In this document: positions 2,912 through 24,000 of the stretch, piece by piece
Layout of the letters: each line of letters starts with the position of its first letter
Numbering within the stretch: position 1 is the first letter of the stretch
The notes under the pieces: generated by a model
Databases searched by the model: none
What the model saw: the letters and a program-made list of their open reading frames with translations, nothing else
Told to the model about the DNA's origin: nothing
Assembly: GCF_947496515.1 (NCBI RefSeq)
Contig: NZ_CANMDB010000012.1
Span: 93,934-117,933 of the forward strand
DNA: 24,000 nt
Direction: 5' to 3'
DNA from: an uncultured Roseobacter sp.
GTDB lineage: Bacteria; Pseudomonadota; Alphaproteobacteria; Rhodobacterales; Rhodobacteraceae
Position numbers and translations under genes: made by a program

Positions 2912-3005
2912 GTTCATCTTCAGTGATAGTCTGGAAATTGATCCGGCCTTGCTTCTTGTCAATTTATCGGCGAGAGGTGTCGAAAATCAGAAATGGAAAA
3001 GACCC

Positions 3006-3341
3006 ATGGCGAAGATAAACCTTGAAAAGATGACAATGGCGCAATTGCAGGCTCACCAAAAAGCCGTCGCAAAAGCGATTGCAAAGCTGGAAAAGCAGCA
3101 AAAGACCGAAGCTCTCAAAGCGGCCAAGACAGCTGCGAGCAAATACGGCTATTCCTTGAATGAGCTTCTTGAGTCAGCGCCGGACCCAAGTCGCGTTCGC
3201 AAAACGACCAAAGCACCAGCCAAGTATCGGCATCCGGAGAACCCCGAGGTGACCTGGACAGGTCGTGGAAGGCAGCCAGGTTGGATCAAAGAAGCCATCC
3301 AATCTGGCAAATCAGTAGACGATTTCCTGATCGCAGATTGA
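3006..3341 (+). CDS. H-NS family nucleoid-associated / xenogeneic-silencing protein
   Basis: 111 aa starting at ATG 3006 (MAKINLEKMTMAQL...) behind ggaaaag. N-terminal coiled-coil-like, Lys/Ala-rich segment. The C-terminus carries the H-NS DNA-binding signature KYRHPENPEVTWTGRGRQPGWIKEAI (TWxGRGRxPxW). Confidence 0.85.
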   Translation: MAKINLEKMTMAQLQAHQKAVAKAIAKLEKQQKTEALKAAKTAASKYGYSLNELLESAPDPSRVRKTTKAPAKYRHPENPEVTWTGRGRQPGWIKEAIQSGKSVDDFLIAD

Positions 3342-3974
3342 ATTCCTAGCACTTCCCCGCAGCCAGCGGCAGCTTAAATTCAGAAGCGTTCTTCCACGAC
3401 AAGGCGGAGTTTTTGGGCTCCTCGACGAGTGTTGTCTTCACGAGACCTAACTCATGATGTTTACGGCGCGGTTGCTATCACGTCTTCACCAAGGATCCGC
3501 GGTCGATGCGCCCAGCGAGTAAATCGCTTGGAGAAGAGTGTGGGCAGTTAATCGCCGGTAGTTTGGCAATGATCCGCTCAGTCATCTCGCTTGTTTCTTC
3601 TAGATCTTGGAGATCAATTGGACACGAGCGGGCGGGAAGCCAGGTAAAAGGTTGGTCTTTGCTGACTAAAGCGCAGGTATTTGGGCGCATGAGAGAAAGG
3701 AAATCTGCCTTTCCGATGAGCCTTTGATGCGGCCTTACGGGATGGTATCAATCGCAATTCCCTGCAACTGAATACCGACGCTCTTCGCGTGAGGATCTTG
3801 CCATATCTGACCAATTCTAATGAGAATTTCGGACCGACAGAACAATTCCCTAAAGCGCCTCGCGACGCTGCATCTGGCGATTTGTGCCACTTGATCACCA
3901 AGTGCAGGATCTGAGTTCTTGAGGCTTAATCTACGCACGCTCGGGCACTCCATCCCCGCAAAGAAACGCCCGGA

Positions 3975-4286: not shown

Positions 4287-4842
4287 GGATCAGATTGCGC
4301 GACGCGACGGTACGCCCCCGCGCGTCAAGACGCCCATCCATCCATCGGGGATCAGGTTGACGAGTGCATGTCGTCACAGATGGTGGATCATCGCTATCAA
4401 ACAAAAATAGGTGAAGATCTAGAAGCCCATTTTCCTGAGGCTGCAAGATCCGCTGAGCAGACGCCATCGGAGGATCGCAGTTGTCGGCCTTCTGCATCTC
4501 CCTGACACCGCAAAGCCGAGAACTAAGAGATCAGGGTGTTCGGTCTAGGCATTGCGAACAAAGCTGAGTCGACTATTGGCAACTTGGCAGAACTTGCAAA
4601 ACACCGGCCAGGATAGATCTCGCGACGAACGCGTTCTTTGGGCTTCGAAGGTGGAACTTTCGCCTAAGATCGAAGGTAGTGTCCTCAACCATCAGACCCC
4701 CTAGACCCGATTTCTAGTGGAGCGTATCCACGACGTGTGTAAGCGCAGACAGTCCTGACGCAGTGCCGTCCTGTGCCTCTTCCGCAGCAGCCACCGGCTC
4801 GGGCGCAAACGGTCCGTACCTGTCCGGTCGTCTCGACGGAAG

Positions 4843-5220
4843 AGGAAAGGCGGCTTCCACGCCGTTGGCGCGGACCCACCGCCTTTCCTCTTTCGTCCAT
4901 CCGTCAAGGGCCAGGTAAGTCCTTCTTGCGCGACCGATCCGACGGCTGACGAGCAAGTCAGACCTCACCGCCCCTGTCCACCGTCGGAATTGCAGAGACC
5001 GCTGCGCGGTCACGGGTTTTCTGGGCCCGCCAAAGCGGGCCGTGCGCTCCCTCACCTCCGGCATCAAAGCAAGCCGGATTTCAGGACTTCTGGCAAAGAG
5101 AATATTTGCATTTATGTCAAATATATCAGTATTTTAGATCGCCACGGCATGATAAAAAAGAGGAGTGGACTAGCCGACGACGACTGCCATCCGCAATCAC
5201 AGGTTTTGACCATGACAGCC
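4843..5220 (+). repeat. Structured leader module, copy A (two-tier hairpin, conserved blocks, RBS, start codon), upstream of the PAPS-reductase-like gene
   Basis: Collinear with copy B. Shared elements are an outer and inner hairpin, then these blocks: cttgcgcgaccga(t)ccgacggctgacgagcaag, gcccgccaaRgcgggc(c)gtgcgctccctc.c.tccggcatcaaagcaag, tgtcaaataWatcagta, aaagaggaRKggac, accatgacagcc. Confidence 0.8.
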
Positions 5221-6123
5221 GCACCACCAAAGAGCATTGAGGCGAGCATGGGGGACCATGCCCAACCTGCTTGCCAAGTCTACGTTCACCCAAGCTGGCC
5301 GCGTGTCAGCGAACCCCTCGAAGGGGCAGATCTGCGCGTGCTGTCGCTTGGTGCAGGTGTCCAGAGCACCACACTCGCCCTAATGGCCGTGCATGGCGAA
5401 ATTGGCCCAATGCCAGATGTAGCAGTCTTTGCCGATACTGAATGGGAACCCGAACCGGTCTACGAGCACCTCAGATGGCTCATGAGTGGCAACATCCTGC
5501 CGTTTCCTGTGCACCGCGTCAGTGCTGTCAATCTGCGCCAGCAAGTGATCGACAGGGGAGGGGGCAGGGCGTTTCATTTCGCTCCCCTTCTTTCTCGACA
5601 GCGGGGGCATGGGTCGCAGACAGTGTACGCGGGAAGCGAAGATCGCACCTATCCGCGCAGAAGTTCAGCGCCTACTAGGGCTCGCTAAGGGCGAACGCAC
5701 GACCAGGTTTCGCATCGAGTAGTGAATCGGTATCTCCACGGACGAAATGGGACACATGAAGGATGCGCGCGAGGCCTGGGTGACACATCGCTGGTCACTT
5801 ATCGAGGCGCGTATGTCGCGTGGCGACTGCTACGCATGACTGCAACGCCACGGATACCCAACACCCCCCAAGTCTTCCTGCATCGGCTGTCCTTACCATA
5901 GCGATGCCTTCTGGCAGCGGATGCAGTGCGAAGATCCCGTGGCTTTCAGGGATGCCGTCGCAGTTGATGCAGCTCTTCGGCAAAACGGTCGGGCGCGGGG
6001 CATGCGGCCAGGAGAATACATGTACAGATCCTATCAGCCTTTGGGAGAGGTCGACTTCGAGGCGAGGGCAGGGGGGCGTAGATGCCATTTGCGGATGAGT
6101 GCGATGGTGTTTGTGGCACCTGA
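5212..6123 (+). pseudogene. PAPS reductase / PP-loop ATPase-like protein (plasmid and phage-associated family), decayed
   Basis: N-terminus LRVLSLGAGVQSTTLALMAVHGEIGPMPDVAVFADTEWEPEPVYEHLRWL (PP-loop SxGxxS). It continues in another frame as GRFISLPFFLDSGGMGRRQCTREAKIAPIRAEVQRLLG...IE**IGISTDEMGHMKDAR...RGDCYA*LQRHGYPTPPKSSCIGCPYHSDAFW. It ends in a third frame as DECDGVCGT*. Two frameshifts sit in G-runs (about 5555-5564 and 6071-6076). Three in-frame stops: TAG 5720, TGA 5723, TGA 5837. Confidence 0.75.
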
Positions 6124-6577
6124 ACTGCAAGAGCCGGTCTGGTGGCTCACCAAGGATGGCGACCGAACCCGTTTGAGGATGTATGAGAGACACTACTCTG
6201 CCTATCGATACCGCGATGGTAGAAAGGGAAGGCTCTTTGTTGGCCCGGGTGAAAAGACTGTCCTGCGCACCAGGCGCCGAGATGCGTTCTTTGTCTGGCG
6301 AAATTTCAGCGAAGCCTCCGGTCAGACAGGCGTCAACTGCGCTGTCTTCCGTAACGAGAGCGCTCACCGATCCTCAGGCCTTATCCGACAGGCGGACCAT
6401 GTCGCTTATCACGTCTGGCCTGATGCGCGGCATTACATATACTTGGGTCCGCACGCTGTCGCCTCCCCGATAGCAGGTGTGGAACGTCGCCCATCACTTA
6501 CTCGATGTGCTGATTTTTCTGAATCGGATCAATGGGCCGCGTCACGCAACACTGATCTAAACGTCAAGCATTGCTGA
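6104..6577 (+). CDS. Hypothetical protein, start overlapping the end of the PAPS-reductase-like pseudogene
   Basis: Open frame with protein-like sequence WWLTKDGDRTRLRMYERHYSAYRYRDGRKGRLFVGPGEKTVLRTRRRDAFFVWRNFSEASGQTGVNCAVFRNES. The start is uncertain (ATG 6095/6104 or GTG 6107/6113). The C-terminal part looks less protein-like and may also be damaged. Confidence 0.45.
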   Translation: MVFVAPELQEPVWWLTKDGDRTRLRMYERHYSAYRYRDGRKGRLFVGPGEKTVLRTRRRDAFFVWRNFSEASGQTGVNCAVFRNESAHRSSGLIRQADHVAYHVWPDARHYIYLGPHAVASPIAGVERRPSLTRCADFSESDQWAASRNTDLNVKHC

Positions 6578-7054
6578 CCCAGACCGTCCATCCAGCATGG
6601 AGCTGGCTATGCCTGCCATGCGGACTCTGCCGCCATTGCCGTACCAAAAACGGATGGCCGCTGTGCGCGCTTCGCCCGGGTAACGAAAAGCTGCAACGGC
6701 GGAAAGTAGGCGTTTGCGGCGGGTGGAACCGACCACTACGGAGGGCATAAGCAGATCCACTGAACGCTACATTGAACCGCCTATAAGGGCGACAGTCGTC
6801 CTTAGGAGAGACCATTTTCCAACCTCATGTGACCGGCCTGCGGCAGATCACGACAATCATCTGGTGCGAGGCGGACGACGAAGAACATTGTAAGGTGCGA
6901 GGCCATGACAGTGGAGCGCAAGAGCCTGCACCGTCGTCTTCCGTCCCCGGTCAAGAAGGTCAATCCGTTCCGCTATTGTTCTTCTCTTCTAGATGGGCGA
7001 CAATTTGCCTATTGGCCGACATTCGTACCATCGGTGATTTGCAATGGAGATTTC

Positions 7055-10000
7055 ATGGACGCGACCATCGTTCACCTGAGCGACCTACATTTCAAGAATG
7101 ATGCTGAGAACCGCCTCCGTCTGCGCTGCTTGCGGACCGATCTGAAGAAGTTGGAGGCGGAGGGAACGATATACACGGTTCTTACCGGTGATCTCGTGAA
7201 TGCAGGCGATGACAACACGTTCGACCTGCTACTCGACGAGCTAGTCGGACCTTTGCTCGAAATGGGGCACGAGGTCTTCGTCGTCCCCGGAAACCACGAT
7301 GTTCAGCGCGCTGTTGCCGATCGATCCTTCTGCGATCGCATCCTCGCCGATCGTGCGAGCGGCTATTTGTTCACGGGAGAGCCCATCCTCGGGACGATCA
7401 CCCCGATCCCGTGTTTGACGTGCTGGCGAACTACCGCGACTTCGAAGAACTGTTTGGTCCCTACGATCAGCAGAGCTATTGGGGGTACACTGCCACTAGG
7501 GGATCGGTATCTTTCGTCGGGCTTAACTCCGCTTGGTTATGCTGCGCGCGCCCCAAGGGCGAAACCGATCGTGGCGCTTTGCGTGTCGAACCCGCCGTCT
7601 TGGAGAAGCTCGTCCAGAACCTGCCGGACGACACGCTTCGCGTGGCGCTGCTTCACCATCCGTTGGACTGGTTGGAAGAGACCACCCGCAGCGCTGTCAG
7701 CGACCTGCTTATCAACAACGCCGACCTCGTTCTCTTCGGTCACGTTCATGCTAACGATGTCGTTGGACAGATCAAGGGGAACGCGAAAAGCGTATTCCTC
7801 CAAGCGCCACCTCTCCGCGCTGATTGGTCCAAGGGGACAAATGGGTACGCGATCGTGCGGACTGATACCGAACACAAGAAGTTCGAGGTTCAATACCGGT
7901 CATACTCGAAGTCTCAGCGCACCTTCGTTTCTGGCGAGGATTTTGCGCCCACTGGCCGCATGTATCCTCGCCCTGAGGACGCAGACTTCTTTCGGAACTC
8001 GCCCCCGCTTTCCGCCCTCCTTCGCCGGTTTGCCGAAACCGAGTCCGTCGACTACCTCGACTGGTATCGGACCCACATCCGCTCTAAGTCGAAGGTGACG
8101 GGGTCGTTCGTGATTCCCAAGGTTCATCACGTTACTGCATCGCAGGAAGGACCTTTTCTCGATCCGCCGCAGTCTTTGACCCACGTCGTCGCCCAATCGG
8201 CATGCGACCAGTTTTTCGTTGCGCCGCTTGACGCGGGCTCCACGACGGCCGCATACCTCACATTCAAGCATCTCTCCGAGACGTTCTCGGTTCATCGCCA
8301 GGTGCCGGCGTACTTCGACGCCGGTCGAGAATCTATCAACAAGGCATCGATCCTTCGCAAGATCAGCCAGACGACCCCCATCCGCTACTCCCACATGGAA
8401 GCTGAGCAGCTGGTCGATGAGGCTGCTGTTGTCGTGGTCGTCGATGGGCTGTGTCTAGGTGATGTCGAACAGTTCAACTTGTTCCGTGACACCGTCGACC
8501 GGCATTTACCGAACATCCGTTTTCTCTACTTCCTAAGCACGGAGCGGCGCGGCCTGTCGCCCACCGGCGTGGGCGAACCGCGCCTCTATTCCAGTGAAGA
8601 CGAGATATACGAGTTTGCCCAACTCGATGTTGACGGCATTCGATCCATGATTGCGATCCGGATTCCCGACAAGGCCGAGGCGGTGCGAGAGGGCGTCGTC
8701 AGCCACGTCGTCGAAAGCTTTCGACAGATGGACGAGCCGATCTTCGCAAGCACCGTCGCTGTGGTGATCGACACCATAACCCAAGATCCGGAATTCAAGC
8801 CACTTAACAAGGCCCGGCTGATCGAGCGATACGTCGAATGCCTCTTGGGACGGTTCGATCTGGAAGACGTGCGAGAGGGGGCGTTCTCGTCGAGCGACAA
8901 GATCAACTTCCTCGCATTCGTGGCGCGTCAGTTGCTGGAGGAGAACCGAGTGGGAATGGACGAGGGTCGATGGCATGGGCTGGTCTCGACTTATCAGGCC
9001 CGTTTCCTTATCGAGCTTCCCCGCCAGCTGCTGAAGGAATTTTTGGACAAAGGCCTTCTGACGATGGAAGGAGGCGAGATCACCTTCCGAGGTGACCATC
9101 TGTTCTCGTTCTTCGTGGCGCAAGAAATGAAGCGTGACGCCGATTTTGCTGCATCCCTTGTCGAGGGTCCGGGTCTGTTTCGGCATTACAGGGAGATCAC
9201 GGTCTACGGTGAACTGGAAGGCACAAATGTCGCCAAGGTGCTCAATGGTGTTTTCCAGGAACTCTGCGCCATAGAAGAGACCCTTCTTGAAAATTATTCG
9301 CGTATCGGCGTCGACCTGACGGCAGAATGGGTGGCCGCGTGCAACGAGGCTGAGGCTAAGGCCGTCTCGGAGTCCCTCGACGAAGCGGCCGCGGGTCTAG
9401 GCACGGCGGATGCCACCGCTGAAGGAGCCGATCGACACGACAACGCGGAGCTTGCGAAGATCGACCGTCGTCGTGGCGTCTCCGAGCGTCAGGAAGTTCG
9501 GGAATCGGAAGCCAGACTCTTGGTCGGCATGCGGCTCTACGGACTACTGCTGAAGAACGCGCTGCACCTCGAGGCTCCATACAAGTTGCGTCATTTAAAA
9601 AAGCTCTATGAAGCGGCGGAACTGTGGGTCGGATTCATGTGCGCCGGCCGCGAAGCCATCGGTCGTCATCCGATCGTCATCGCAGGCGGCGTGCGCTTCA
9701 TAAATCTCGGGGCCATGGTGGACAAGGAACGATCCTACAGAGACTTCAAGTTCAACGCACCGAACACGGTGTCCCGACTGATCGCCGGCACGATGCGTAA
9801 TCCTCAGCTTTCCATCGCGATCAGGAACCTGATTGGCGATCTTGATCCGATGAGTCAGTTGTTTGCCCGTGATGTGCTGCTGGAGATGCCGGGTGATCAG
9901 AACAGGGACGCGTATCTCGGGTCGCTCAAGAGCGAGGAGGACATCAACCTTGTCATCTGCGCATTGCGAACGCTACGAATCCGATACCTTTCCGCCGGAC

Positions 10001-10149
10001 GAAATCAGGATCGCAGGAACTATCTGGAGAGTATCGTGAATGCGATTGCTAAAGACCCGCGCGTCGCAAGACGCGTCGACTTCTCAAAGCTCCGAAAGGC
10101 TCGCCTTGTTCAGGACTTGCGCGGAAAGGCAGCTCAAGGTATCGAATAG
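7055..10149 (+). CDS. Calcineurin-like metallophosphoesterase fused to a NACHT/STAND-type NTPase and a helical C-terminal domain; reading frame broken once near 7401 (ORF pieces 7055..about 7405 and 7411..10149)
   Basis: ATG 7055 lies behind GGAGA. All metallophosphoesterase (MPE) motifs are present, and they span the frame break: VHLSDLHF, TGDLVNAGD, VPGNHD | LLHHPL, FGHVHAN. STAND features follow: Walker A-like APLDAGSTTAAY (8221-8256), Walker B VVVVVDGL, STERRG, and the winged-helix signature KGLLTMEGGEITFRGDHLFSFFVAQEM. After that come about 400 aa of helical sequence with no obvious repeats. Adding one C to the C4 run at 7401-7404 gives the continuous reading GEPILGTITPDPVFDVLANYRDF. Confidence 0.8.
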
Positions 10150-10531: not shown

Positions 10532-11524
10532 TTAGAACGCTGGCTGCCGGTATTCTTGTTTCTTGGTCAGTATCGCCCAGATGGTCCGGGCTGCCTTGTT
10601 TGCCATGGCGACCGTTGCCAGCCGGAACGGTTTGTCGGCGATAATCTTAGCGGTCCAAAGATCAACCTTCTCCGGCGAACGTTTCGCCATCACTGCGCGA
10701 GACGTCATGCCCACGACCAACAGTTTACGAATGTAGCGATCACCCTGCTTCGTGATCTTGCCAAGACGTTCCTTGCCGCCACTGGACTTGTTGAGCGGGG
10801 TCAGGCCCAACCAGGCCACCAAATCGCGCCCGGTGCGGAACTGTTTTGCGTCCCCGATCGTGGCGACAATCGCTGAGGCCGTGATCGGCCCAATCCCCGG
10901 CATGCGCATCAGCCAGCGCACATCTGAGCTCAGCAGGACATGTTGTTCGATCATCTTCGAATAGCCGTCGATACGTTCGTTTAGCCCGATGAATTGGTAG
11001 CACTGTATGCCAAGCATGCCGGTTGCGATCTCGGGCATGTCCGGGTGATCGCCATCAAGGTGACGCTTTGCAAAAGCCGTCACCGCTTCGATCCCGATGG
11101 GCAAGATATGCCCAAACTCGCGCAACAGGCTGCGGATCATATTGGCCAACTGAGTGCGCTGCCGGACGGCCAGATCTCGCGTGCGGTGGATTGACAGAAT
11201 GGCCTGCTGATTTTCCGTTTTGATATCGACAAAACGCATGGTCGGACGGCGGACCGCCTCGCAAATCGCTTCTGCGTCGACAGCATCGTTCTTTCCGCGC
11301 TTCACATAGGCTTTGACATATCCGGCAGGCATGAGCTTCACATCATGCCCGAGCTTGCGTAGTTGACGGCCCCAATGATGGGATGAACCGCAGGCTTCCA
11401 TGCCAACCGTGCACGGTGGCAACGTCTCAAAAAACGCCAGCAGCTTCGCGCGTTTGATCGCCTTGTTGAAGATCACACGGCCATTCTCCGAAATGCCGTG
11501 TACTTGAAAAACATCCTTGGCCAT
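10532..11524 (-). CDS. IS110-family transposase (DEDD/RuvC-like), N-terminus disrupted
   Basis: MAKDVFQVHGISENGRVIF...VGMEACGSSHHWGRQLRKLGHDVKLMPAGYVKAYVKRGKNDAVDAEAICEAV...MPGIGPITASAIVATIGDAKQFRTGRDLVAWLGLTPLNKSSGGKERLGKITKQGDRYIRKLLV is classic IS110 family. The ancestral start MTVKTVGVDL (ATG 11591, SD GGAG) lies 40 nt further upstream and out of frame. Confidence 0.88.
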   Translation of the reverse strand: MAKDVFQVHGISENGRVIFNKAIKRAKLLAFFETLPPCTVGMEACGSSHHWGRQLRKLGHDVKLMPAGYVKAYVKRGKNDAVDAEAICEAVRRPTMRFVDIKTENQQAILSIHRTRDLAVRQRTQLANMIRSLLREFGHILPIGIEAVTAFAKRHLDGDHPDMPEIATGMLGIQCYQFIGLNERIDGYSKMIEQHVLLSSDVRWLMRMPGIGPITASAIVATIGDAKQFRTGRDLVAWLGLTPLNKSSGGKERLGKITKQGDRYIRKLLVVGMTSRAVMAKRSPEKVDLWTAKIIADKPFRLATVAMANKAARTIWAILTKKQEYRQPAF

Positions 11525-11591
11525 CCCTCTCATTGACTGCTGCGCAATCAACTGCCGGTCAAAGATCCACGCCTACGGTCTTTACTGTCAT

Positions 11592-14389: not shown

Positions 14390-15046
14390 TCAGCCGGATG
14401 TGGGACCAATGATACCTTCAATGCCGTCTAACAGCATGTCGAGTGTCGTATCGAAGGCGCTGTTTGGGGCTTTGGTCGCTTCACGCCCGAGAAGTGCCTT
14501 CACACGGGGGTACATATCTTCGGACAGGGCATCGATCTCGTTCAATATGTCCTGCGAAGGCGACCGGATCAGTCCACTGACCTCGGCCATCGCCAACCCA
14601 AGGACGCTGGCATATAGGCCGAAGCCCAGATCTCGAATGCGCTCTCGTGCAACGCCCGCAGTCGCCAGGGCTTCGAACACCAGCTCGATGTTTCTGTAAT
14701 CGGCGGAACCGGTTGCTGTGAACCGCATCAAAAGCGGCATCGTATTTGGATAATCAAGCGCGAGGTCTCGATATTGATGGCTTAGGTCTACAAGGCATTC
14801 CCGCCATGAAAGCCCAGTAGCAGGCGCACGCACCCTTGCGTTCAGCGCTTCCGCCATTGCCCGTTCCAAATCACGCTTTGATTTGAAGTGATAGAGGATC
14901 GCCATTGGATCGCACCCGACCCGTGCAGCCACCTTTCGGACGCTGAACTTATCTGCGCCGACCTCTTCCATCAGCGCAAGCGCAGCCTCAAGCATCGCGT
15001 CGACACCGAGGCCTCTTGGACCAGTCCGAGTAAATTTTTTCTGCAT
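14390..15046 (-). CDS. TetR/AcrR-family transcriptional regulator
   Basis: MQKKFTRTGPRGLGVDAMLEAALALMEEVGADKFSVRKVAARVGCDPMAILYHFKSKRDL is a TetR N-terminal HTH. The gene is divergent from an MFS transporter. The start (ATG 15046) has no clear SD, so it is moderately uncertain. Confidence 0.88.
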   Translation of the reverse strand: MQKKFTRTGPRGLGVDAMLEAALALMEEVGADKFSVRKVAARVGCDPMAILYHFKSKRDLERAMAEALNARVRAPATGLSWRECLVDLSHQYRDLALDYPNTMPLLMRFTATGSADYRNIELVFEALATAGVARERIRDLGFGLYASVLGLAMAEVSGLIRSPSQDILNEIDALSEDMYPRVKALLGREATKAPNSAFDTTLDMLLDGIEGIIGPTSG

Positions 15047-15047
15047 T

Positions 15048-15080
15048 GTAGAATTTCTACTTGCCCCTCTACGATGTAGA
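15048..15080. promoter_or_regulatory. Candidate TetR operator: two palindromes sharing GTAGA/TCTAC half-sites
   Basis: GTAGAAtTTCTAC (15048-15060) and TCTACgatGTAGA (15068-15080) lie in the 107-bp tetR-MFS intergenic region. Confidence 0.5.
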
Positions 15081-15153
15081 AATACATCCAGTTCCATCGA
15101 ACACAACCATAAACCGACGGCCACCTAGCTGCGGTCGAAGACTGGAGACTACG

Positions 15154-16374
15154 ATGTCACATCAAGGAACAATGGAGCTGACGCCGCGCCAGAGGATGCT
15201 CAGTGTCGCGGCCGTGATCCTGTCCACCATTGGGGTGGGCGTGTCATACGGTGTGGGCTATCCCTTGACGTCGCTGACGTTTGAAGCCTGGGCACAACCT
15301 GCCTGGCTCACCGGATTGGCGGGGAGCATGCCAGCACTTGCTATTTTGCTCTGTTTGCCGTTCTTTCCGGCGATCGTCGCGCGACTGAACACGGTTGGTG
15401 CCATGTCGCTCGGCTGCGTTCTCGTCGGGCTCAGCTTTCTTTTGATGCCGGTGTTCCCATCGCCAGAGGCTTGGCTGGTCCTGCGATTCATCATGGGCGC
15501 GGGTCTGGCCCTGCCATGGCTTGTTGGTGAAACGTGGATCAACACTGTTGCCACCAACAGGAACCGGGGGCAGCTACTGGCACTTTACGCGATTGCTCTA
15601 TTCTCGGGATTTGTTGTCGGTCCCTACGTGCTGCAGTGGGTTGGTATCACCGGATGGGCTCCATTCCTGTTCGGTGCGGCCGGCATCTTTCTTGCTGTGC
15701 TCCCGCTTGTAGCTGCGCTCAAACTGGCCCCCAAGATGCCATCGCACCCTCAAACCGGGGTATTTGGTGCAATCAAGCTGGCGCCCATCGCGATGATCGG
15801 AGGCCTGGTTGGTGGCTTCCTCGAACTCGGCAATGTCTCGATGCTGCCAGTATATGGGGTCGCCATCGGCATGAGCGAGGCGGAGGCTCTGCGGATCGTC
15901 ACCATGTTCATGCTCGGGGGTCTTGTGTTGATCTTCCCGATCGGGGTCCTGGCCGATAAGCTTTCTGCCCGCACCATGTTGATCGGCGTTGGCTTGATCT
16001 TTGCGGTGACAACGACGCTCGTGCCGTTTGCGCCCTCGCCGCTTTTGATGACAGTCTTGGTATTCGTCATGGGGGGCATCGGGGTTGGTTTTTATGCGCT
16101 GTCGCTGACCTTCATTGGGCAAACGGTACGCCTGGCCGATCTCGCCGTCGCAAACGCGGCGTTTCTCATCGCGTATCAGCTTGGCGCAATGGTTGCCCCA
16201 ACCGCACTCGGCGTCGCGATGGAAGTGTCGTATCCCAGTGGCTACATCGTGGTACTGGTGGCCGCTGCACTGATCGGTGTGCTGGGTTTCATTACAATCG
16301 GTCGCCAGAAGGCGGGTAGCACCGTCCGGGTCACGATTGTCGATGAGAAGATCGGCGCAGGCAAGTCTGATTGA
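15154..16374 (+). CDS. Major facilitator superfamily transporter
   Basis: 406 aa. ATG 15154 lies behind GGAGA. There are about 12 hydrophobic helices with a central loop. The gene is paired divergently with the TetR regulator. Confidence 0.88.
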   Translation: MSHQGTMELTPRQRMLSVAAVILSTIGVGVSYGVGYPLTSLTFEAWAQPAWLTGLAGSMPALAILLCLPFFPAIVARLNTVGAMSLGCVLVGLSFLLMPVFPSPEAWLVLRFIMGAGLALPWLVGETWINTVATNRNRGQLLALYAIALFSGFVVGPYVLQWVGITGWAPFLFGAAGIFLAVLPLVAALKLAPKMPSHPQTGVFGAIKLAPIAMIGGLVGGFLELGNVSMLPVYGVAIGMSEAEALRIVTMFMLGGLVLIFPIGVLADKLSARTMLIGVGLIFAVTTTLVPFAPSPLLMTVLVFVMGGIGVGFYALSLTFIGQTVRLADLAVANAAFLIAYQLGAMVAPTALGVAMEVSYPSGYIVVLVAAALIGVLGFITIGRQKAGSTVRVTIVDEKIGAGKSD

Positions 16375-17949: not shown

Positions 17950-18198
17950 ATGAAACACCTTACAAGCCGAGAGTTTAACCAAAACGTCAGCAAGGCAAAG
18001 AGAGATGCCTTGTCCGGTCCTGTTTTTGTGACGGATAGGGGCCAGCCTTCGCATGTATTGCTTAGCTATGACGAGTACAGGCGGCTGACATCTGAGCCGA
18101 CCAACATTGTCGAAGCTCTGTCAATGAAGGGACTGTCCTCGGTCGACTTTGAGACGGAGAAGGTGTCGCCTTCCATCAAACCAGTTGATCTTTCGTGA
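17950..18198 (+). CDS. Type II antitoxin, Phd/YefM family
   Basis: MKHLTSREFNQNVSKAKRDALSGPVFVTDRGQPSHVLLSYDEYRRLT matches the Phd/YefM N-terminal pattern. The stop overlaps the toxin GTG start (GTGA). Confidence 0.85.
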   Translation: MKHLTSREFNQNVSKAKRDALSGPVFVTDRGQPSHVLLSYDEYRRLTSEPTNIVEALSMKGLSSVDFETEKVSPSIKPVDLS

Positions 18199-18635
18199 TC
18201 TACCTTCTGGACACAAATGTCGTTTCAGAGCTTCGCAAGGCAGGGGATGGAAAAGCGGATGCCAATGTTGCGGAGTGGGCCTCCCTGCGAGACCCCGAAG
18301 AGCTATACATATCTGTAATTACTCTTCTGGAACTAGAAGTGGGTGTTCTCAGGATTGAGCGAAGAGACGACAAGCAAGGTCAGATGCTTCGCATTTGGCT
18401 TGAACACCATGTCATCCCCTTCTTCCAAGATCGTATTCTGCCGGTAGACGAGCATGTCGCGATTGGTTGTGCGAGGCTGCATGTTCCGAACAAGAGCCCT
18501 GAGCGTGATGCGCTGATCGCCGCAACGGCAAACGAACTCAATATGACCATCGCCACGCGTGATGAAAAAGACTTTCGAGATCTGGCTAGGAAAACCTTCA
18601 ACCCCTGGAGTTCAATGAAAGGTACCCGCGGATGA
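18195..18635 (+). CDS. vapC: Type II toxin, VapC (PIN-domain ribonuclease)
   Basis: MIYLLDTNVVSEL...YISVITLLELEVG...ERDALIAATANELNMTIATRDEKDF...NPW carries the PIN acidic residues in their canonical positions. Confidence 0.9.
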   Translation: MIYLLDTNVVSELRKAGDGKADANVAEWASLRDPEELYISVITLLELEVGVLRIERRDDKQGQMLRIWLEHHVIPFFQDRILPVDEHVAIGCARLHVPNKSPERDALIAATANELNMTIATRDEKDFRDLARKTFNPWSSMKGTRG

Positions 18636-19495: not shown

Positions 19496-19843
19496 ATGCG
19501 AGATAAACCCACGCCACGGCACGATCTACCTGCGCGCCGTCTGACAGAAACCCGCAAAGTGACAACACGAGATGGCCACACCGTCCATCTTTCGGTCGGC
19601 TTCGACCCTCATGAAGACGGGCGCCCGCGCGAGGTCTTCTATTCGGCAGGCTTCAAATCGGGCTCGGCGCTCGAGTTCCAGATCCAGGACTCCTGCGTTC
19701 TCATCTCGCTTCTCCTGCAGCACGGGTTCAGGCCGGAGCAGATCTCTAAGTCGCTTGCCCGAGTTGAACTGCCCGACGGCGGGTTGTCCTATGCAAGCAC
19801 GACCGGTCTCATCGCCGATGAGCTGGTCTCGTCGACGCGATAG
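19496..19843 (+). CDS. TSCPD-domain-like small protein (resembles the ribonucleotide reductase class II C-terminal module)
   Basis: SD aggag lies 9 nt upstream. HLSVGFDPHEDGRPREVFYSAGFKSGSALEFQIQDSCVLISLLLQHGFRPEQISKSL...ASTTGLIADEL follows the TSCPD-family pattern as I recall it (EvFi..gKaGs......a..rliSlaLrhGv). The Cys/Pro of the TSCPD motif itself are replaced. Confidence 0.5.
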   Translation: MRDKPTPRHDLPARRLTETRKVTTRDGHTVHLSVGFDPHEDGRPREVFYSAGFKSGSALEFQIQDSCVLISLLLQHGFRPEQISKSLARVELPDGGLSYASTTGLIADELVSSTR

Positions 19844-20087: not shown

Positions 20088-20778
20088 AGCCAGCACATGA
20101 CTTCATCGAGCTCTGCGAGGGTCTTGTGCTGAGGTGCTACCGATCGGGATCGTAAACGCCATTTCCAGTTTATGAAGTCATTCATGACGGCCGAACTCTT
20201 ATAGCTGTCCGCACCGAATAGATGGCCCTCTCGATTGATGCTGCGGGCTCACCAGCTCGGCTTCGCGTGTCGCTGGTGAGTATTGGCCCGTGGCCAATCG
20301 CACAGTCGGGCATGCGCCCTCCGTGCAGATGTTGGCGCTGGATGTCCCGGTCCGCCCGCCTCGCGAGCGCAGCCCACCTCGGCCGCTCCGCCGGATTGCG
20401 CTCTGGTCTGTTTTGCCAGGGCAAAACGATCCCGCCACTCCATCCGTCTCCCGCGTCCGGTCAGGCTGCTTGCCTGCTCAGGTCGGGCTGACCTCGCGAA
20501 ACCACACACACACATGACTGTGGAAGCATATCCTCCGGATGGCCACCGAAGCAGCCCGCGTCAAGGATCGCTAGAATTTTCGGAGAGGACCTTCTTAATC
20601 GTCAGAGGACCCGCGCGCTTGAGAGGGCAGGGACATGCGAAGCCGCCTACCATGAAAATTCGAGCGCCCAGCAAGCTGGCGGCTTCGCCGTCCCTGACCC
20701 GAACAGCTTCGGAAACCAGACATTCGGCCATGCAGCCACACTCACGTGGTGCAGATCAGAAACTCTGGAGAACACATC

Positions 20779-21708
20779 ATGCCATACGATCAAGCAACCA
20801 CATACGAGACCATCGAACTCTTCGGCCTCACCGAGAAGGACGCAGCTATGCCGATCCCGACCGACGAGATGCTGAAGGACGCCATCATCCGGGAAACCTT
20901 CGAGACGCTGCTCGGGCAGCTGCGTGCCACCGGGCTTGAGGCAGAAATCGAGCCGCTTGCCCACGGGTTGGCGACGATCCTGCAGCGGCGCAAGATCGCC
21001 CTCACCAAGGAGATCGACCGGACCACCGACAAGATCCGGGCACTGGCGAAGAGCCACGACGGATCGGAGATCGCCGAGACCGCCATGGAGGAAGCACAAG
21101 CCCGCTTCCTGCAACTCCGCGACATCACCGGCGCCATTGAGACGATGAGCGAAGCGGCTGCCGAGTGCTACGAAACCGAGACCGGCCACGCCTTCATCCC
21201 TGCAGCCGGCTCTCGCGCCAGCGCACGTGCGCAGGAGACAGGCGCCATCTTCGAAGCGCGCCAGCTCCTCGAGCAGCATGACCGAGAGACCGCCGAGAAG
21301 TCGAAGGTCGAGGGCGTCCCCCTGATCGTCTCCGGCGCCACCGACTGGACTGACGTCGACGCGATCTTCTCGACGCTCGACAAAGTCCGGGCGCGCATCC
21401 GGCAGAACCGCAATCAGGAGATCTTCGTCTGCCACAAAGGCGGCAAGCACGGTGCCGAGATGATCGCTGCCCGTTGGGCGCGCGCTCGTGGGATCCCGCA
21501 AGCCCGATTCGATCCACGTTGGTCCGCCCATGGCCGCTCGGCACCCTTCAAGTGCAACGATGAGATGCTCGACGACAAGTTCGCTGCAGCCGGGGTCGTT
21601 CTCTTTGGCGGCAACGGTGTCGCGCTCAATCTCGGGCAAAAGGCTGAGGCGAAAGGGATCACCGTCATGCGGGTCGCAGATCCGGCGAGGGCGCGCGACG
21701 GGAAGTGA
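20779..21708 (+). CDS. DUF2493 (SLOG-superfamily) domain protein with an N-terminal helical extension of about 190 aa
   Basis: ATG 20779 lies behind GGAGA. The C-terminus PLIVSGATDWTDVDAIFSTLDKV...IFVCHKGGKHGAEMIAARWARARGIPQARFDPRWSAHGRSAPFKCNDEMLDD...GVVLFGGNGVALNLGQKAEAKGITVMRV matches the DUF2493 pattern (GsRdw.d...vhGg..GaD.iAa.WA...gv....f.adW...G..Ag..RN..Ml). Confidence 0.8.
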   Translation: MPYDQATTYETIELFGLTEKDAAMPIPTDEMLKDAIIRETFETLLGQLRATGLEAEIEPLAHGLATILQRRKIALTKEIDRTTDKIRALAKSHDGSEIAETAMEEAQARFLQLRDITGAIETMSEAAAECYETETGHAFIPAAGSRASARAQETGAIFEARQLLEQHDRETAEKSKVEGVPLIVSGATDWTDVDAIFSTLDKVRARIRQNRNQEIFVCHKGGKHGAEMIAARWARARGIPQARFDPRWSAHGRSAPFKCNDEMLDDKFAAAGVVLFGGNGVALNLGQKAEAKGITVMRVADPARARDGK

Positions 21709-21714
21709 ATAAGA

Positions 21715-21748
21715 AGGGCCACCCTCGGGTGGCCCTCTTGTCGTTTTC
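21715..21748 (+). terminator. Rho-independent terminator
   Basis: AGGGCCACC-ctcg-GGTGGCCCT followed by cttgtcgtttt, 7 nt after the stop codon. Confidence 0.65.
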
Positions 21749-22205
21749 ATCCGGCGTGAGAGTCACTCTGAGTGCAGTAGCATCGCCTCCGCGCCGAACA
21801 GGCTCCGCCGGGAGGCATCCCCTCCAGTCTGGCATCATCAGCAGCCGCAGTGAAACGCGCGACAGACCAGCTCATGGACGGCGACGGCGAAGAGCGCTCC
21901 CCGCGATCACGACACGCGGGCAGGGCGTGCGTTTTGGAACATGCCTCCGACATTCTCCTCGCAGTTGCACGCGGTTTTGCTGTGCATCAGGGAAGATGCC
22001 GTTCAACGCTGAGCCATTCGGCTCTCTCCTTTTTCCTCAGTCATACGCTTCGCACGGCGGCGGCCCGGCCGTTCCCGCCGCTAAGCGTCGGCAAGCACAA
22101 ATACGGCTTCCACACGCTTTGCGCGCGGACCCTCCGCATTTGCGCTTGCGCCCGGTCCTGACACCGCCGTGCTTCCGATGCCCATCGAAAAAAGGAGAAA
22201 CCCAA

Positions 22206-22412
22206 ATGTCCAACCACTTCACAGCAACCGTTCCCGTCAAATACACCGACAGCGACAACCGCGATCGCACCCGCTTCCAGCGCGTCGGCGTCATGTTCCA
22301 AAACGCCCGCCGCGACACCGGCGAGGTCTTCTACACCCTCAAGCTCGACTTCCCCGTCGCCGTCCACGAGCTGGTGATGTTCCCGCCCAACTCAAACGCG
22401 CCCGAGGACTGA
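22206..22412 (+). CDS. Small conserved-looking hypothetical protein (68 aa)
   Basis: A very good SD (aaaGGAGAaacccaaATG) and a strong terminator downstream. MSNHFTATVPVKYTDSDNRDRTRFQRVGVMFQNARRDTGEVFYTLKLDFPVAVHELVMFPPNS. Small beta-rich proteins of this kind accompany DUF2493 genes in conjugative elements, but I cannot name a family. Confidence 0.65.
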   Translation: MSNHFTATVPVKYTDSDNRDRTRFQRVGVMFQNARRDTGEVFYTLKLDFPVAVHELVMFPPNSNAPED

Positions 22413-22426
22413 TCCCGACAAGACAG

Positions 22427-22462
22427 AAAAAGGGGGGCCGCCTGCCGGCGGCCCCCCTTTTT
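22427..22462. terminator. Strong (potentially bidirectional) Rho-independent terminator
   Basis: AAAAA-GGGGGGCCGCC-tgcc-GGCGGCCCCCC-TTTTT: a perfect 11-bp GC stem flanked by A and T runs. Confidence 0.85.
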
Positions 22463-22956
22463 CTGCGCGTCCAACGACCGCCAAATAGGCGGGGCGTGCA
22501 GATCTCCGATGTCGTTCTCGACGTTCAGTCGATTGCGCAGCAGCGTGATGGAGATGCTGACGACGATGGGAATGATTTTCCGTTGGGCCCCTGCCACGGC
22601 TCAGGGCCGTGGCACCAGGCTCTAGGTTCCGTCCGCGATGCGGCCTCCACCCAGAACCACCAGGCCTCTTCCTCCCTGCCGCAATAGCCCTGTCACTGTC
22701 TCCACAGGAGCCAGTGAAAGGGCTTTGCGCCATGGTCGGCGAGACCTGCCGTTTCTGCCCTCCGGGTAACGATCCTTGGGGCGGCGCTCTACGGGCAAGT
22801 TCAGGGTAGGACGGTAGGCCGGGCATCCCACTCCGGGGATTCGTCGCTGCGCTCCGAACGCCCATCGTGGTTTCTGGCCTCTCCAGAGTTCCGCGGGCCT
22901 GCACGCCAGCCTCTGGTCAGTCGCGGGCCTTTCGCTACGAGATCTGCGCGTCCCGC

Positions 22957-23315
22957 CCAAGGGCTAATTTCCCCTGGCCCGTTGGGCCATTCATCGCGAA
23001 ACAAATTAGCCCTTGGCCGCGCCACCCATATCCCGCAGACGAGGCCTTGCGCGACCGACCGACGGCTGACGAGCAAGCCAGCAGACGAAGCACCTGTGAT
23101 CGACCGGCTTAAATCGAGGCCGCGGTGCGGCCAAGGTTATTATTGCCCGCCAAGGCGGGCGTGCGCTCCCTCTCTCCGGCATCAAAGCAAGACCATCAAG
23201 CGCCTGATTGCAAACGGTTTATTCGTCATTTTGTCAAATAAATCAGTAGGTTGAGAGGCGCTTGTAATGTAGTATGGGAGCAGCAGAAAGAGGAAGGGAC
23301 AGCACCATGACAGCC
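22957..23315 (+). repeat. Structured leader module, copy B, upstream of the 23307 gene cluster
   Basis: Outer IR CCAAGGGCTAATTT (22957-22970) / AAATTAGCCCTTGG (23003-23016) with inner hairpin GGCCC-gtt-GGGCC. The same ordered conserved blocks as copy A follow (23046, 23145, 23232, 23288), through accatgacagcc (23304-23315). Confidence 0.8.
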
Positions 23316-23654
23316 CAAGTTGAGGTCCTGAATGCCAACACACCCGAGTACTGGATCGACGTCAAAGAAAGGGCCAGAACACGGAAGGTAGATGCGTTGA
23401 TTGCAGACGGTCTGCGGAGATTGCGGGTCAGTTCCGTCTATGAGCAGTACGTCATGGATCAGCTTGAGGTCATCCGAGGCGCAGCGCAGAAGACCGGTAT
23501 TCTGAACGAGCCCGATGCTTATCTTGCGCTGAAACAGCGGTACGCCAAGACGCTCGGCCTGCCTGAGCTTCTGGAAGACGAACAGACCACGGCGCGGTTT
23601 TGCGAGGAAGCGGTCGCAGACGCCTACACAGCTCTCTACGGAGAAGCCCTATGA
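23307..23654 (+). CDS. Hypothetical protein (115 aa)
   Basis: ATG 23307 lies behind gaggaaggg (the alternative start is 23274). MTAQVEVLNANTPEYWIDVKERARTRKVDALIADGLRRL... No family recognised. Confidence 0.6.
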   Translation: MTAQVEVLNANTPEYWIDVKERARTRKVDALIADGLRRLRVSSVYEQYVMDQLEVIRGAAQKTGILNEPDAYLALKQRYAKTLGLPELLEDEQTTARFCEEAVADAYTALYGEAL

Positions 23655-23848
23655 CCTCTTGGGAAAAGAACGCAACCGAGCACCACTCACAAGCCTGCCC
23701 TCAATGCGACGGATACGGTGAAGGGCTAGATGGGCTTTCGATGTGCCTACACTGCGACGGGACAGGATACGTCACAAAGGCAACCCGCTTGCGGATGGAT
23801 AGGACGTTAACTGCTTCAGGCTTCAACTGTTGCGAGACAGCGAAGTGA
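23651..23848 (+). CDS. Small zinc-ribbon protein with two CxxCxGxG (DnaJ CR-type) motifs
   Basis: The ATG overlaps the preceding stop (ATGA). Motifs are CPQCDGYG and CLHCDGTG in MTSWEKNATEHHSQACPQCDGYGEGLDGLSMCLHCDGTGYV. Confidence 0.6.
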   Translation: MTSWEKNATEHHSQACPQCDGYGEGLDGLSMCLHCDGTGYVTKATRLRMDRTLTASGFNCCETAK

Positions 23849-24000
23849 TGACCATCCAGAGAGCCACAAAGGCGGGCGGATGTCGATCCGGCAGTGACGC
23901 ACACGGTGCCGTCATCCATCTGATCGAGGCCGACGAACACCCCTATGAGACCGGAAGCACGAGACCGGCACTCTGCGGGACCTCACCGGCCATCATGTGG
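23848..24000 (+). CDS. Hypothetical protein, 3'-partial (runs off the window)
   Basis: ATG 23848 overlaps the preceding TGA by 1 nt. The frame is open to nt 24000: MTIQRATKAGGCRSGSDAHGAVIHLIEADEHPYETGSTRPALCGTSPAIMW. Confidence 0.4.
   Translation, partial: MTIQRATKAGGCRSGSDAHGAVIHLIEADEHPYETGSTRPALCGTSPAIMW

Follow-up and report, generated by a model that had tools for sequence, protein, structure and literature searches.

The 24,000-nucleotide stretch of contig NZ_CANMDB010000012.1 from an uncultured Roseobacter sp. that was analysed here (the window) carries two copies of a non-coding unit, copy A at about 4788–5211 and copy B at about 22890–23306, each of which ends at the start codon of a different gene. 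With a confidence somewhat above even, the unit is considered to be a leader cassette for establishment genes on Roseobacteraceae plasmids that are conjugative or mobilizable, in which a hairpin part that would act on the transferred strand (T-strand) is joined to a part consisting of a promoter and a 5′ untranslated region (5′UTR).

Copies A and B are 73.9% identical over 211 nt in a local blastn alignment (4925–5131 in A against 23046–23248 in B, E = 8e-25), and an nhmmer profile of the core that was made from 13 distinct members of the family detects exactly two core copies in the window, at 4923–5075 (E = 2e-36) and 23045–23193 (E = 2e-31). A preliminary description of this DNA had listed five ordered blocks common to the two copies, and reading and alignment of both regions recover all of them in the same order: block 1 (4925–4957 in A and 23046–23077 in B, plus strand), a GC hairpin followed by GTGCGCTCCCTC..GGCATCAAAGCAAG (5024–5073 and 23145–23191), tgtcaaataWatcagta (5116–5132 and 23232–23248), aaagaggaRKggac (5157–5170 and 23287–23300), and accATGacagcc in the start-codon region (5209–5220 and 23304–23315). 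The duplication that was placed there at 4843–5220 is real, but the unit begins further upstream, at about 4788 in A and about 22890 in B, block 1 being the 3′ arm of a long hairpin, H1. The nearly identical spacing reported for the blocks holds up to the AT-rich block, beyond which the spacing in the two copies diverges through indels of 14 nt and 38 nt. Similarly, the fourth block, which had been called a ribosome-binding site, adjoins the ATG in B but lies 42 nt upstream of it in A, where it is the homologue of a GA-rich block that in relatives stands 5′ of a separate CACCACAAAGGA Shine–Dalgarno sequence. The whole unit measures about 420 nt in the window, compared with about 520 nt in relatives.

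Copies, relatives and plasmid setting

A blastn search of PLSDB (word size 11), in which four module variants used as queries each returned the same seven plasmids, places the family in 7 of 72,556 plasmids, at 18 positions that are all intergenic, none of them lying under an annotated feature. The seven carriers belong to Phaeobacter piscinae/inhibens and Leisingera and are typed as mobilizable and MOBP. Exact-pattern scans add four genomes, with contigs of Marivita, Cognatiyoonia (at least four copies within 8 kb), Loktanella and Sulfitobacter, as well as six metagenome contigs; pattern matches in a metagenome-assembled genome of Thermoleophilaceae and in nine metagenome contigs were discarded as chance after alignment. 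The family sits in Rhodobacterales (Roseobacteraceae), and not in Rhizobiales, where it had been expected. There are 2–5 copies per replicon, and every copy lies on the strand of the next gene. Copies on the same plasmid are nearly identical, while copies on different plasmids differ by about 25%; the divergence between A and B is at this second level, and their hairpin interiors differ. Copy A has 138 nt and copy B 115 nt between the end of block 2, the second invariant block of the unit, and the start codon, compared with 134–145 nt in ten relatives.

The genes that follow the relatives' copies encode an ArdC-like zincin (four copies), DUF3768 and then ParB (three copies), DUF932, DUF3560 with a methyltransferase, and small zinc-ribbon proteins; pP36_f has three copies, each at the head of an operon, at distances from the nick of about 4.3, 9.4 and 14.8 kb. 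In the window, gene A (5212–5688, plus strand, 158 aa, with its start corrected to 5212) and gene B (23307–23654, plus strand, 115 aa, no assigned function) encode unrelated proteins (BLASTP of one against the other, E = 7.4), as had been stated. The description of the gene A product as PAPS-reductase-like finds no support, since Pfam, NCBIfam and PDB sequence searches return no family, domain or solved-structure match. In tblastn, gene A aligns over aa 7–129 only, and its homologue on P. inhibens pP80_h has 286 aa; such 286-aa homologues adjoin ParB-like genes on many plasmids of Alphaproteobacteria (171 records in PLSDB, of which 110 are from Agrobacterium), and gene A has probably arisen from a gene of about 286 aa by truncation or a frameshift (window 5212–5688 and 5921–6577). 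A 65-aa zinc-ribbon open reading frame (ORF) with two CxxCxGxG motifs (23651–23848) has a start that overlaps the stop codon of gene B (ATGA) and shows weak DnaJ zinc-finger and RtpA matches; a similar 70-aa zinc-ribbon protein follows a module copy at 7013 of the Cognatiyoonia contig (L004). The proposal of a reusable non-coding cassette joined to the start codons of unrelated genes is borne out, more copies having been found on other replicons.

The window segment 20242–22396 matches about 150 plasmids of the Roseobacter group at 77–83% identity, most of them typed conjugative. P. inhibens pP88_c (L013) carries on one strand, in this order, DUF2493, a thermonuclease, a 68-aa gene, a MobC-like gene, a relaxase and a type IV coupling protein, and the window is syntenic with it through DUF2493 (DUF2493/YAcAr, 20746–21708). 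From this synteny, the window would be the leading side, proximal to the origin of transfer (oriT), of such a plasmid, and a relaxase gene is expected just past base 24000. The MOBP nick consensus has been given as (C/T)ATCCTG(C/T) (PMC3772185). The motif TATCCTGC, which matches it, is found on the minus strand in three relatives (L001, L002 and L013), where the plus strand just upstream of mobC/relaxase reads GGCAGGATATGCC in L002 and L013 and TGCAGGATAGGC in L001; the minus strand is therefore the T-strand in these three. The T-strand leaves 5′-first toward lower coordinates, which puts the modules in the leading region, and the relatives' modules stand 4–15 kb into it, pointing at oriT. The plus-strand genes behind the modules have the T-strand as template, an arrangement that has been reported for anti-defence genes of leading regions generally (PMC11541004). 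By synteny, the minus strand would be the transferred strand in the window as well. The leading-region setting that had been suggested for the unit agrees with this layout, in which the relatives' copies head the ArdC-like, DUF3768–ParB, DUF932 and DUF3560 operons toward a MOBP nick on the opposite strand.

It is barely conceivable that the unit is a decayed mobile element, such as the end of an insertion sequence (IS) or a miniature inverted-repeat transposable element (MITE), a gene fragment or a chance repeat. It is multi-copy, about 0.4–0.5 kb long and rich in inverted repeats, and an IS110 element is present in the window (10532–11551, minus strand). However, the ends of the unit have no terminal inverted repeats, the repeats being internal (H1), there is no linkage to a transposase, and no orientation-independent scatter of the kind expected of a MITE or IS end was seen, while target-site duplications were not specifically searched for. 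All copies are gene-oriented, stand at a fixed distance and orientation to start codons, have the start codon as their 3′ end, and are restricted to leading regions. One-nucleotide indels between A and B, seen in the pairwise alignment, disrupt all reading frames, which speaks against a gene fragment, and chance is excluded by the E value of the A–B alignment. An IS or MITE end, a gene fragment and a lack of conservation elsewhere had been named as outcomes that would overturn the proposal; none of them was found, and the family is conserved on other replicons.

Covariation and strand bias of the hairpins

When the 230 nt upstream of each copy were folded, block 1 was found to be the 3′ arm of the long imperfect hairpin H1 wherever H1 is present. 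H1 of copy A (4788–4948, minus strand) is an imperfect hairpin of 161 nt whose 3′ arm, in plus orientation, is block 1 and which contains a 19-bp inner hairpin (4835–4897); H1 of copy B (22890–23085, minus strand) is an almost continuous imperfect hairpin of 196 nt, also with block 1 as its 3′ arm. The interiors of H1 fall into three types, namely type I, which reads CAAGnnG-CTTTCGCGGCATA-(apex)-GTTATTCCACGG-TCnnCTTG, type II, formed by the homologous interiors of copy B and some Cognatiyoonia copies, and the unique interior of copy A, whose inner hairpin (4846–4898) is homologous to the apex (22099–22153) of a hairpin at 21866–22375. H1 is followed by a variable stretch, P2 (a GC hairpin of 6–8 bp), a T-rich run, P3 (a GC hairpin of 5–8 bp) and the invariant unpaired block 2. 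Block 1, which reads CTTGCGCGACCGATCCGACGGCTGACGAGCAAG in copy A, is the most conserved sequence of the family and near-invariant in 13 distinct copies; its one variable base (CCGAnGG) changes in step with its partner in the left arm of H1, as T:A, G:C and C:G, with A.C/C.A intermediates.

The two short hairpins show the same behaviour in all copies. P2 is GACCGC-TGC-GCGGTC in A (4997–5011), where the T-rich run follows at 5017–5022, and GGCCGC-GGT-GCGGCC in B (23118–23132); across the family its stems are GACCGC/GCGGTC, GGCCGC/GCGGCC, GACCGCGC/GCGCGGTC, GTCGGC/GCCGAC, CACCGC/GCGGTG and GATCGT/ACGATC, all Watson–Crick, with four of the six pairs altered on both sides. P3 is GGCCCGC-CAAA-GCGGGCC in A (5024–5041) and GCCCGCC-AA-GGCGGGC in B (23145–23160); it is predicted in all copies, in six forms that are again entirely Watson–Crick, for instance GGCCCC/GGGGCC, GGCCCCCC/GGGGGGCC and GCCCGCC/GGCGGGC. 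Block 2 (5042–5073 in A, 23161–23191 in B, plus strand) is unpaired in both copies; it reads GTGCGCTCCCTCACCTCCGGCATCAAAGCAAG in A, and GCGCTCCCTC and GGCATCAA within it are invariant. A pairing of block 1 or of the variable segment with block 2, which RNAalifold proposed, was rejected because the bases involved are invariant and the pairing would compete with H1.

The pairing of H1 was evaluated on nine type-I sequences against 500 shuffles. In the 48-pair consensus, 94.4% of cells are paired, compared with 83.6 ± 1.1% after shuffling, a value that none of the 500 shuffles reaches; 13 pairs are altered on both sides (7 of 500 shuffles reach 13), and the covariation score is 0.252 against 0.080, again reached by none. 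As a control, sliding the partners by 1–3 columns leaves 34–42% pairing.

With DNA parameters, the minus strand folds more stably than the plus strand in 18 of 18 copies. The difference in H1 amounts to 7–20 kcal/mol, compared with 2–5 in dinucleotide shuffles, in 8 of 8 lineages (z from -1.5 to -5.7). H1 of copy A folds at -54.6 kcal/mol on the minus strand (z = -5.8) and -46.9 on the plus strand (z = -4.3), H1 of copy B at -73.7 (z = -10.2) and -53.4 (z = -4.8), respectively, and the alifold consensus energy of H1 is -68.6 on minus against -51.4 on plus. A strand-neutral mismatch count, in which each left arm was aligned to the reverse complement of its right arm, gives 43 transition mismatches that are G.T on minus against 23 that are G.T on plus over eight lineages; the other H1 mismatches are of the kinds C.T, T.C and C.C if read on the plus strand and hence purine–purine on the minus strand. 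The GC skew of the plus strand is -0.06 to -0.15 in the unit, which is locally C-rich, and about +0.01 to +0.04 in the surroundings. This pattern argues for folding of the T-strand and against a structure in the sense mRNA, and the earlier comparison with single-strand promoters agrees with the transferred-strand bias of the long hairpin. An antisense RNA behind the minus-strand bias would formally fit; neither a leftward promoter nor a minus-strand terminator was seen by eye, and this candidate was set aside.

It has also to be considered that the unit is a sense-strand RNA leader transcribed from upstream, in which H1, P2 and P3 would act in the mRNA by antitermination or on stability or translation, for example by pairing of block 2 with the GA-rich block. 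Compensatory changes in hairpins suit RNA as much as DNA, the composition of the C-rich block 2 (CUCCCUCnCCUCC) complements that of the GGAGAGG block downstream, and in EGeRS1 of pLS20 there is a precedent for which an RNA mechanism is still possible (PMC8708921). This reading is nevertheless improbable, as H1 is always weaker on the plus (mRNA-sense) strand, where its mismatches are A.C and pyrimidine–pyrimidine, and no conserved pairing of block 2 with the GA-rich block is predicted. In addition, Rfam gives no match in the window at the gathering score, and even permissive scans (E ≤ 1) return only chance microRNA and small-RNA matches with E of 0.4–0.75.

Highly improbable, too, is a role as the target of a relaxase or other HUH nuclease, in which P3 and GTGCGCTCCCTC on the plus strand would form a site for oriT-like nicking or for recombination and repeated sites would shuffle or mobilise gene cassettes. 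A hairpin followed by the invariant unpaired GTGCGC..CCTC (5024–5053 and 23145–23172) resembles the MOBQ consensus NWACCNNTAAGTGCGCCCTYNN / TAAGTGCGCCCTY (the former from PMC3832669), the units delimit unrelated genes in the manner of cassettes, and copy A is a chimera. However, block 2 reads GTGCGC-TC-CCTC, with a 2-nt insertion right at the MOBQ nick position and no TAA; the relaxases of the carrier plasmids are of the MOBP type and have an ATCCTG nick of their own on the opposite strand, the units are not linked to any HUH gene, and several functional nick sites in direct repeat would break up transfer. A MOBQ oriT has an inverted repeat followed by TAAGTGCG/CCCTY on the transferred strand and an adjacent MOBQ relaxase; this combination is not found at the units, where block 2 lies on the non-transferred strand.

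Leader, proposed mode of action and neighbouring elements

Between block 2 and the ATG (about 140 nt) no conserved structure is found on either strand, and the folding energy is equal on both. The AT-rich unstructured segment of this leader occupies 5090–5158 in A (plus strand), with CTGGCA, the palindrome ATATTTGCAT-TT-ATGTCAAATAT and GATAAAAA, and 23207–23286 in B (plus strand), with ATTGCA, the palindrome TTTATTCGTCA-TTT-TGTCAAATAAA and TAGTAT. The AT-rich motif of the preliminary description lies inside this segment (in A at 5116–5132), its tgtcaaataWat being the right half of the small palindrome. In A, the GA-rich block and the remaining leader extend from 5157 to 5211 (plus strand) as far as the start codon, whereas in B the GA-rich block (23287–23306, plus strand) itself serves as the Shine–Dalgarno region, about 7 nt from the ATG. 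An alignment of 11 copies shows the conserved boxes TTGnCA, (TTGCAC)N4-8(GTGCAA)ATAWAT, TAATAT/TAAAAA and the GA-rich block, and the AT-rich segment looks like a promoter or an operator. Consensus scans of both arms and strands of the unit detect neither a sigma-70 consensus promoter nor an intrinsic terminator. Promoters of Rhodobacterales deviate from the E. coli consensus, often lacking -7T, and a non-match to the E. coli type is weak evidence. A sigma-54 reading of TGGCA..TTGCA was rejected by eye, the spacing being 15 nt and not 11.

Relatives' units begin with an extra hairpin, H0 (GGGGGGATTCGGACAAGCCGAACGCCCCC, with a co-varying outer stem), which is often followed by a T-run and is absent from the window. 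About 45 plasmids of Rhodobacterales contain the H0 motif, in intergenic positions and often several times, with up to five occurrences per plasmid (for example L001 3436, L002 3606, L003 21 and L015 1073). P. inhibens pP80_h (L029) has a different duplicated leader of 240 nt (1388–1630 and 3407–3643) before VbhA/Fic and DUF3768–ParB, which shares with the present family only H0 (TTCGGACAAGCCGAAC) and the CACCACAAAGGA Shine–Dalgarno sequence; the leaders that share H0 may form a superfamily.

These features of the leader bear on a further explanation, namely a promoter/operator cassette acting as double-stranded DNA, with a plasmid repressor bound to the palindrome and/or the RAGnAAG repeats and brief expression by zygotic induction as long as the recipient lacks the repressor, the hairpins being insulators, terminators or without function. 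It would account for the conserved palindrome TTGCAC-N4-GTGCAA/ATAWAT and the -10-like box within an unstructured AT-rich segment, for the terminator-like look of H0 with its T-run in relatives, and for the direct repeats GAGnAAG at the end of block 1 (A 4950–4957) and AAGnAAG at the end of block 2 (A 5066–5073). These repeats, which stand at the same positions in all relatives, carry the same base in concert, in the states C/C, A/A (in two lineages) and G/G, and one copy has a G-to-A change at the preceding base in both; such concerted changes, unexplained by pairing, suggest one sequence-specific partner for both sites. Precedents exist in CUP/ArdK of IncN and Reg576 of p576 (PMC6294495, PMC6289460). 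On the other hand, a double-stranded cassette leaves unexplained both the compensatory changes along the 160–200 nt of H1 and the minus-strand bias beyond composition, P2 and P3 are judged not to be terminators, as T-runs do not follow them and the terminator consensus scan gave no match, and no repressor was identified. It is regarded as unlikely, although a serious contender.

From the observed anatomy, distribution, context, compensatory pairing and strand bias, we infer the biochemical activities and the timing of expression of the leader cassette as follows. Its first part, comprising H1, then P2 and P3 flanking the T-rich run, and the two invariant unpaired blocks, would have been selected to fold as single-stranded DNA (ssDNA) of the transferred strand. 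Folding on this strand, which is the template of the downstream gene, would make it act in the recipient before or during complementary-strand synthesis. It might do so as an entry site for RNA polymerase or a primase (an ssDNA promoter or primer site, compare Frpo/ssi/sso) and/or as a barrier that delays conversion to double-stranded DNA; a primer site, a roadblock and an ssDNA site recognised by a protein are equally open options. If a primer or transcript began at H1/P2/P3 with the minus strand as template, it would proceed to the right, across the AT-rich promoter and then the gene. A polymerase coming from later-entering DNA would reach H1 first. The second part (about 140 nt), with its small palindrome, -10-like box and GA-rich leader ending at the start codon, would be promoter/operator and 5′UTR, the AT-rich palindrome portion likely being a conventional promoter/operator that adds a repressor-based shut-off. 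With both parts in place, any gene fused behind them would be expressed early and transiently.

Several observations weigh against this reading. The MOBP nick motif was not found inside the 24,000-nt window, and the nick site of the plasmid to which the window belongs lies outside it. No positionally conserved -35/-10 pair is present in the stem or in the linear part of 11–12 copies, with or without -7T; the defining feature of an ssDNA promoter of the Frpo type is therefore absent from the stem, and the unit is not filed under that type. A natural copy in Cognatiyoonia (L004 2272–2388) has H1 precisely deleted, its left flank being joined to ..TCAGAC, with P2, P3 and block 2 intact, which shows the two parts of the unit to be separable and suggests that H1 may be dispensable. 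The strand bias could in part result from C-to-T damage of a strand that is often single-stranded. Finally, in a profile search the related plasmid pP88_c (L013), which has a type IV secretion system (T4SS), lacks the module; because related T4SS plasmids lack it, the module is not essential for transfer.

A more far-reaching version, which is put forward tentatively and is itself rather unlikely, takes the structured half as a new class of T-strand-acting element, distinct in mechanism and without promoter hexamers, belonging to a wider, exchangeable set of strand-biased hairpins in the leading regions of Rhodobacterales. Here, the invariant unpaired blocks GCGACCGAyCCGAnGGCTGACGAGnAAG and GTGCGCTCCCTC..GGCATCAAAGnAAG, with their concerted same-base changes, would be read by a dedicated protein, which would start synthesis on the incoming ssDNA or stall its conversion; candidates are a primase of the plasmid or of the host, an HUH enzyme, and an RNA polymerase that is assisted by CarD or uses an alternative sigma factor. 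Other members of the set would be the H0-bearing leaders of about 45 plasmids and the hairpin at 21866–22375.

The latter is a nested inverted repeat of 510 nt (I3, I4, I19) that encloses the start of a 68-aa gene (22206–22412, 'YTLKLDFPVAV'). Its right arm consists of the Shine–Dalgarno sequence and the first 56 or so codons of this gene, and its left arm is a degenerate inverted copy; as DNA it folds at -171.4 kcal/mol on the minus strand (z = -12.5) and at -132.2 on the plus strand (z = -6.8). In pP88_c (L013 14780–15345), both the gene and the hairpin are conserved. From the minus-biased 510-nt hairpin, the apex shared with copy A and the H0 leaders, strand-biased hairpins seem to be general and exchangeable in these leading regions. 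The 68-aa gene is followed by a perfect palindrome of 19 bp, flanked by A/T runs (22424–22465, CAGAAAAAGGGGGGCCGCC/GGCGGCCCCCCTTTTTCTG), which resembles a bidirectional terminator, and a second terminator-like hairpin (21714–21745) follows DUF2493.

Elsewhere in the window, an RTX-like repeat protein enters from the window edge (13–2400); its ORF contains three to four tandem repeats of 450 nt with GGxGxD-like nonapeptide repeats, which gives it the look of an RTX-type calcium-binding protein. It is followed by an H-NS-like gene (2949–3341). In 6905–10149, ORFs in different frames overlap, namely a metallophosphoesterase (6905–8098) and a 912-aa ORF with a weak nSTAND NTPase match (7411–10149), which may represent a frameshifted or fused defence-type gene within the leading region. 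Further genes are a TetR/MFS pair (14390–16374), a Phd/PIN toxin–antitoxin pair (17950–18635) and TSCPD (19496–19843).

Comparison with known systems

By context and strand logic, the closest likeness is with the Frpo/ssi/ssp elements of IncF and IncI1 plasmids. In both cases, the leading region contains several copies, every one of them preceding an establishment operon whose template is the T-strand, and a long imperfect hairpin that folds on the transferred strand is followed by genes for anti-restriction or ssDNA handling. For the present family, the features of the Frpo type that were found are a hairpin on the transferred and template strand (in the window assigned by synteny) and several leading-region copies before establishment or anti-defence genes. 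Sources for Frpo/ssi elements also include Masai & Arai 1997 and Nasim et al. 2004. It has been reported that the Frpo/ssp hairpins of the F plasmid precede leading-region genes and are transcribed from the T-strand, that the transcripts prime complementary-strand synthesis, and that one F hairpin stalls this synthesis and thereby prolongs expression (PMC11541004; bioRxiv 10.64898/2026.01.09.698686). The differences lie in the sequence, in the stem and in the added parts: there is no sequence similarity, the PLSDB blastn search, which covers thousands of IncF/IncI plasmids, returning only Roseobacteraceae; the stem has no -35/-10 boxes, whereas Frpo-type elements bring these hexamers into the stem duplex; and the unit, whose hosts are Alphaproteobacteria, has in addition a pair of GC hairpins, a pair of invariant unpaired blocks and an AT-rich, unstructured leader of 140 nt that is fused to the ATG.

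CUP of the IncN plasmid pKM101 is described, in the accounts that refer to Delver & Belogurov 1997, as conserved upstream repeats of about 0.4 kb before seven leading-region units, with ArdK sites (via PMC6289460, PMC6294495). The unit is alike in being a direct repeat of about 0.4 kb before unrelated leading-region genes, with operator-like sequences and the character of a portable leader. As far as these accounts go, CUP is understood as a double-strand promoter and ArdK-binding element, unlike the unit, which is largely a strand-biased hairpin. No IncN plasmid is among the PLSDB blastn matches, and no ArdK-type regulator was identified, an ArdK homologue not having been searched for.

EGeRS1 of the pLS20 family of Bacillus occupies 400–600 bp directly upstream of the ribosome-binding sites of ardC and other establishment operons, and it resembles the unit as a conserved region that ends at the gene start, contains many inverted repeats and has no recognisable strong promoter (PMC8708921). 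The transferred strand of pLS20 is the non-template strand, which argues against transcription of ssDNA there, whereas the T-strand assigned to the unit would be the template. No Bacillus plasmid is among the PLSDB blastn matches, and the hosts of the unit are Gram-negative marine bacteria. The sso elements of rolling-circle plasmids (ssoA/ssoU) and the ssi elements of the G4/phiX type are long, strand-specific imperfect hairpins with conserved unpaired motifs that are active on ssDNA only and serve to start complementary-strand synthesis after entry by conjugation. The unit shares with sso the strand-specific long imperfect hairpin and the conserved unpaired motifs; however, there is a single sso per plasmid, with no gene fused to it, and the sso motifs RSB and CS-6 were not seen in the unit.

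To our knowledge, nearly all known single-strand promoters and establishment leaders come from plasmids of enterobacteria (F, ColIb, pKM101) and Bacillus. The preliminary description was aware of no such units for this type of element; the class as such is known, from CUP in IncN, Frpo/ssi in IncF/IncI and EGeRS1 in the pLS20 family, but none was found for this plasmid group, and a full-text search of the literature on the leading region and oriT of Roseobacter plasmids gave only a single general review. The family is a sequence-defined candidate, supported by covariation, for the timing of anti-restriction genes in marine Alphaproteobacteria, for which natural variants are on hand in the H1-deleted copy, the chimeric hairpins and the copies in front of ArdC. 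It could be used as a marker that orients leading regions and the T-strand in Roseobacter plasmids, for testing whether ssDNA-acting elements require promoter hexamers, and as a portable early-expression cassette for conjugative delivery. On the best reading, the unit is a new sequence family in a new host clade that mixes features of the known systems, a Rhodobacterales counterpart of Frpo/ssi, CUP and EGeRS1.

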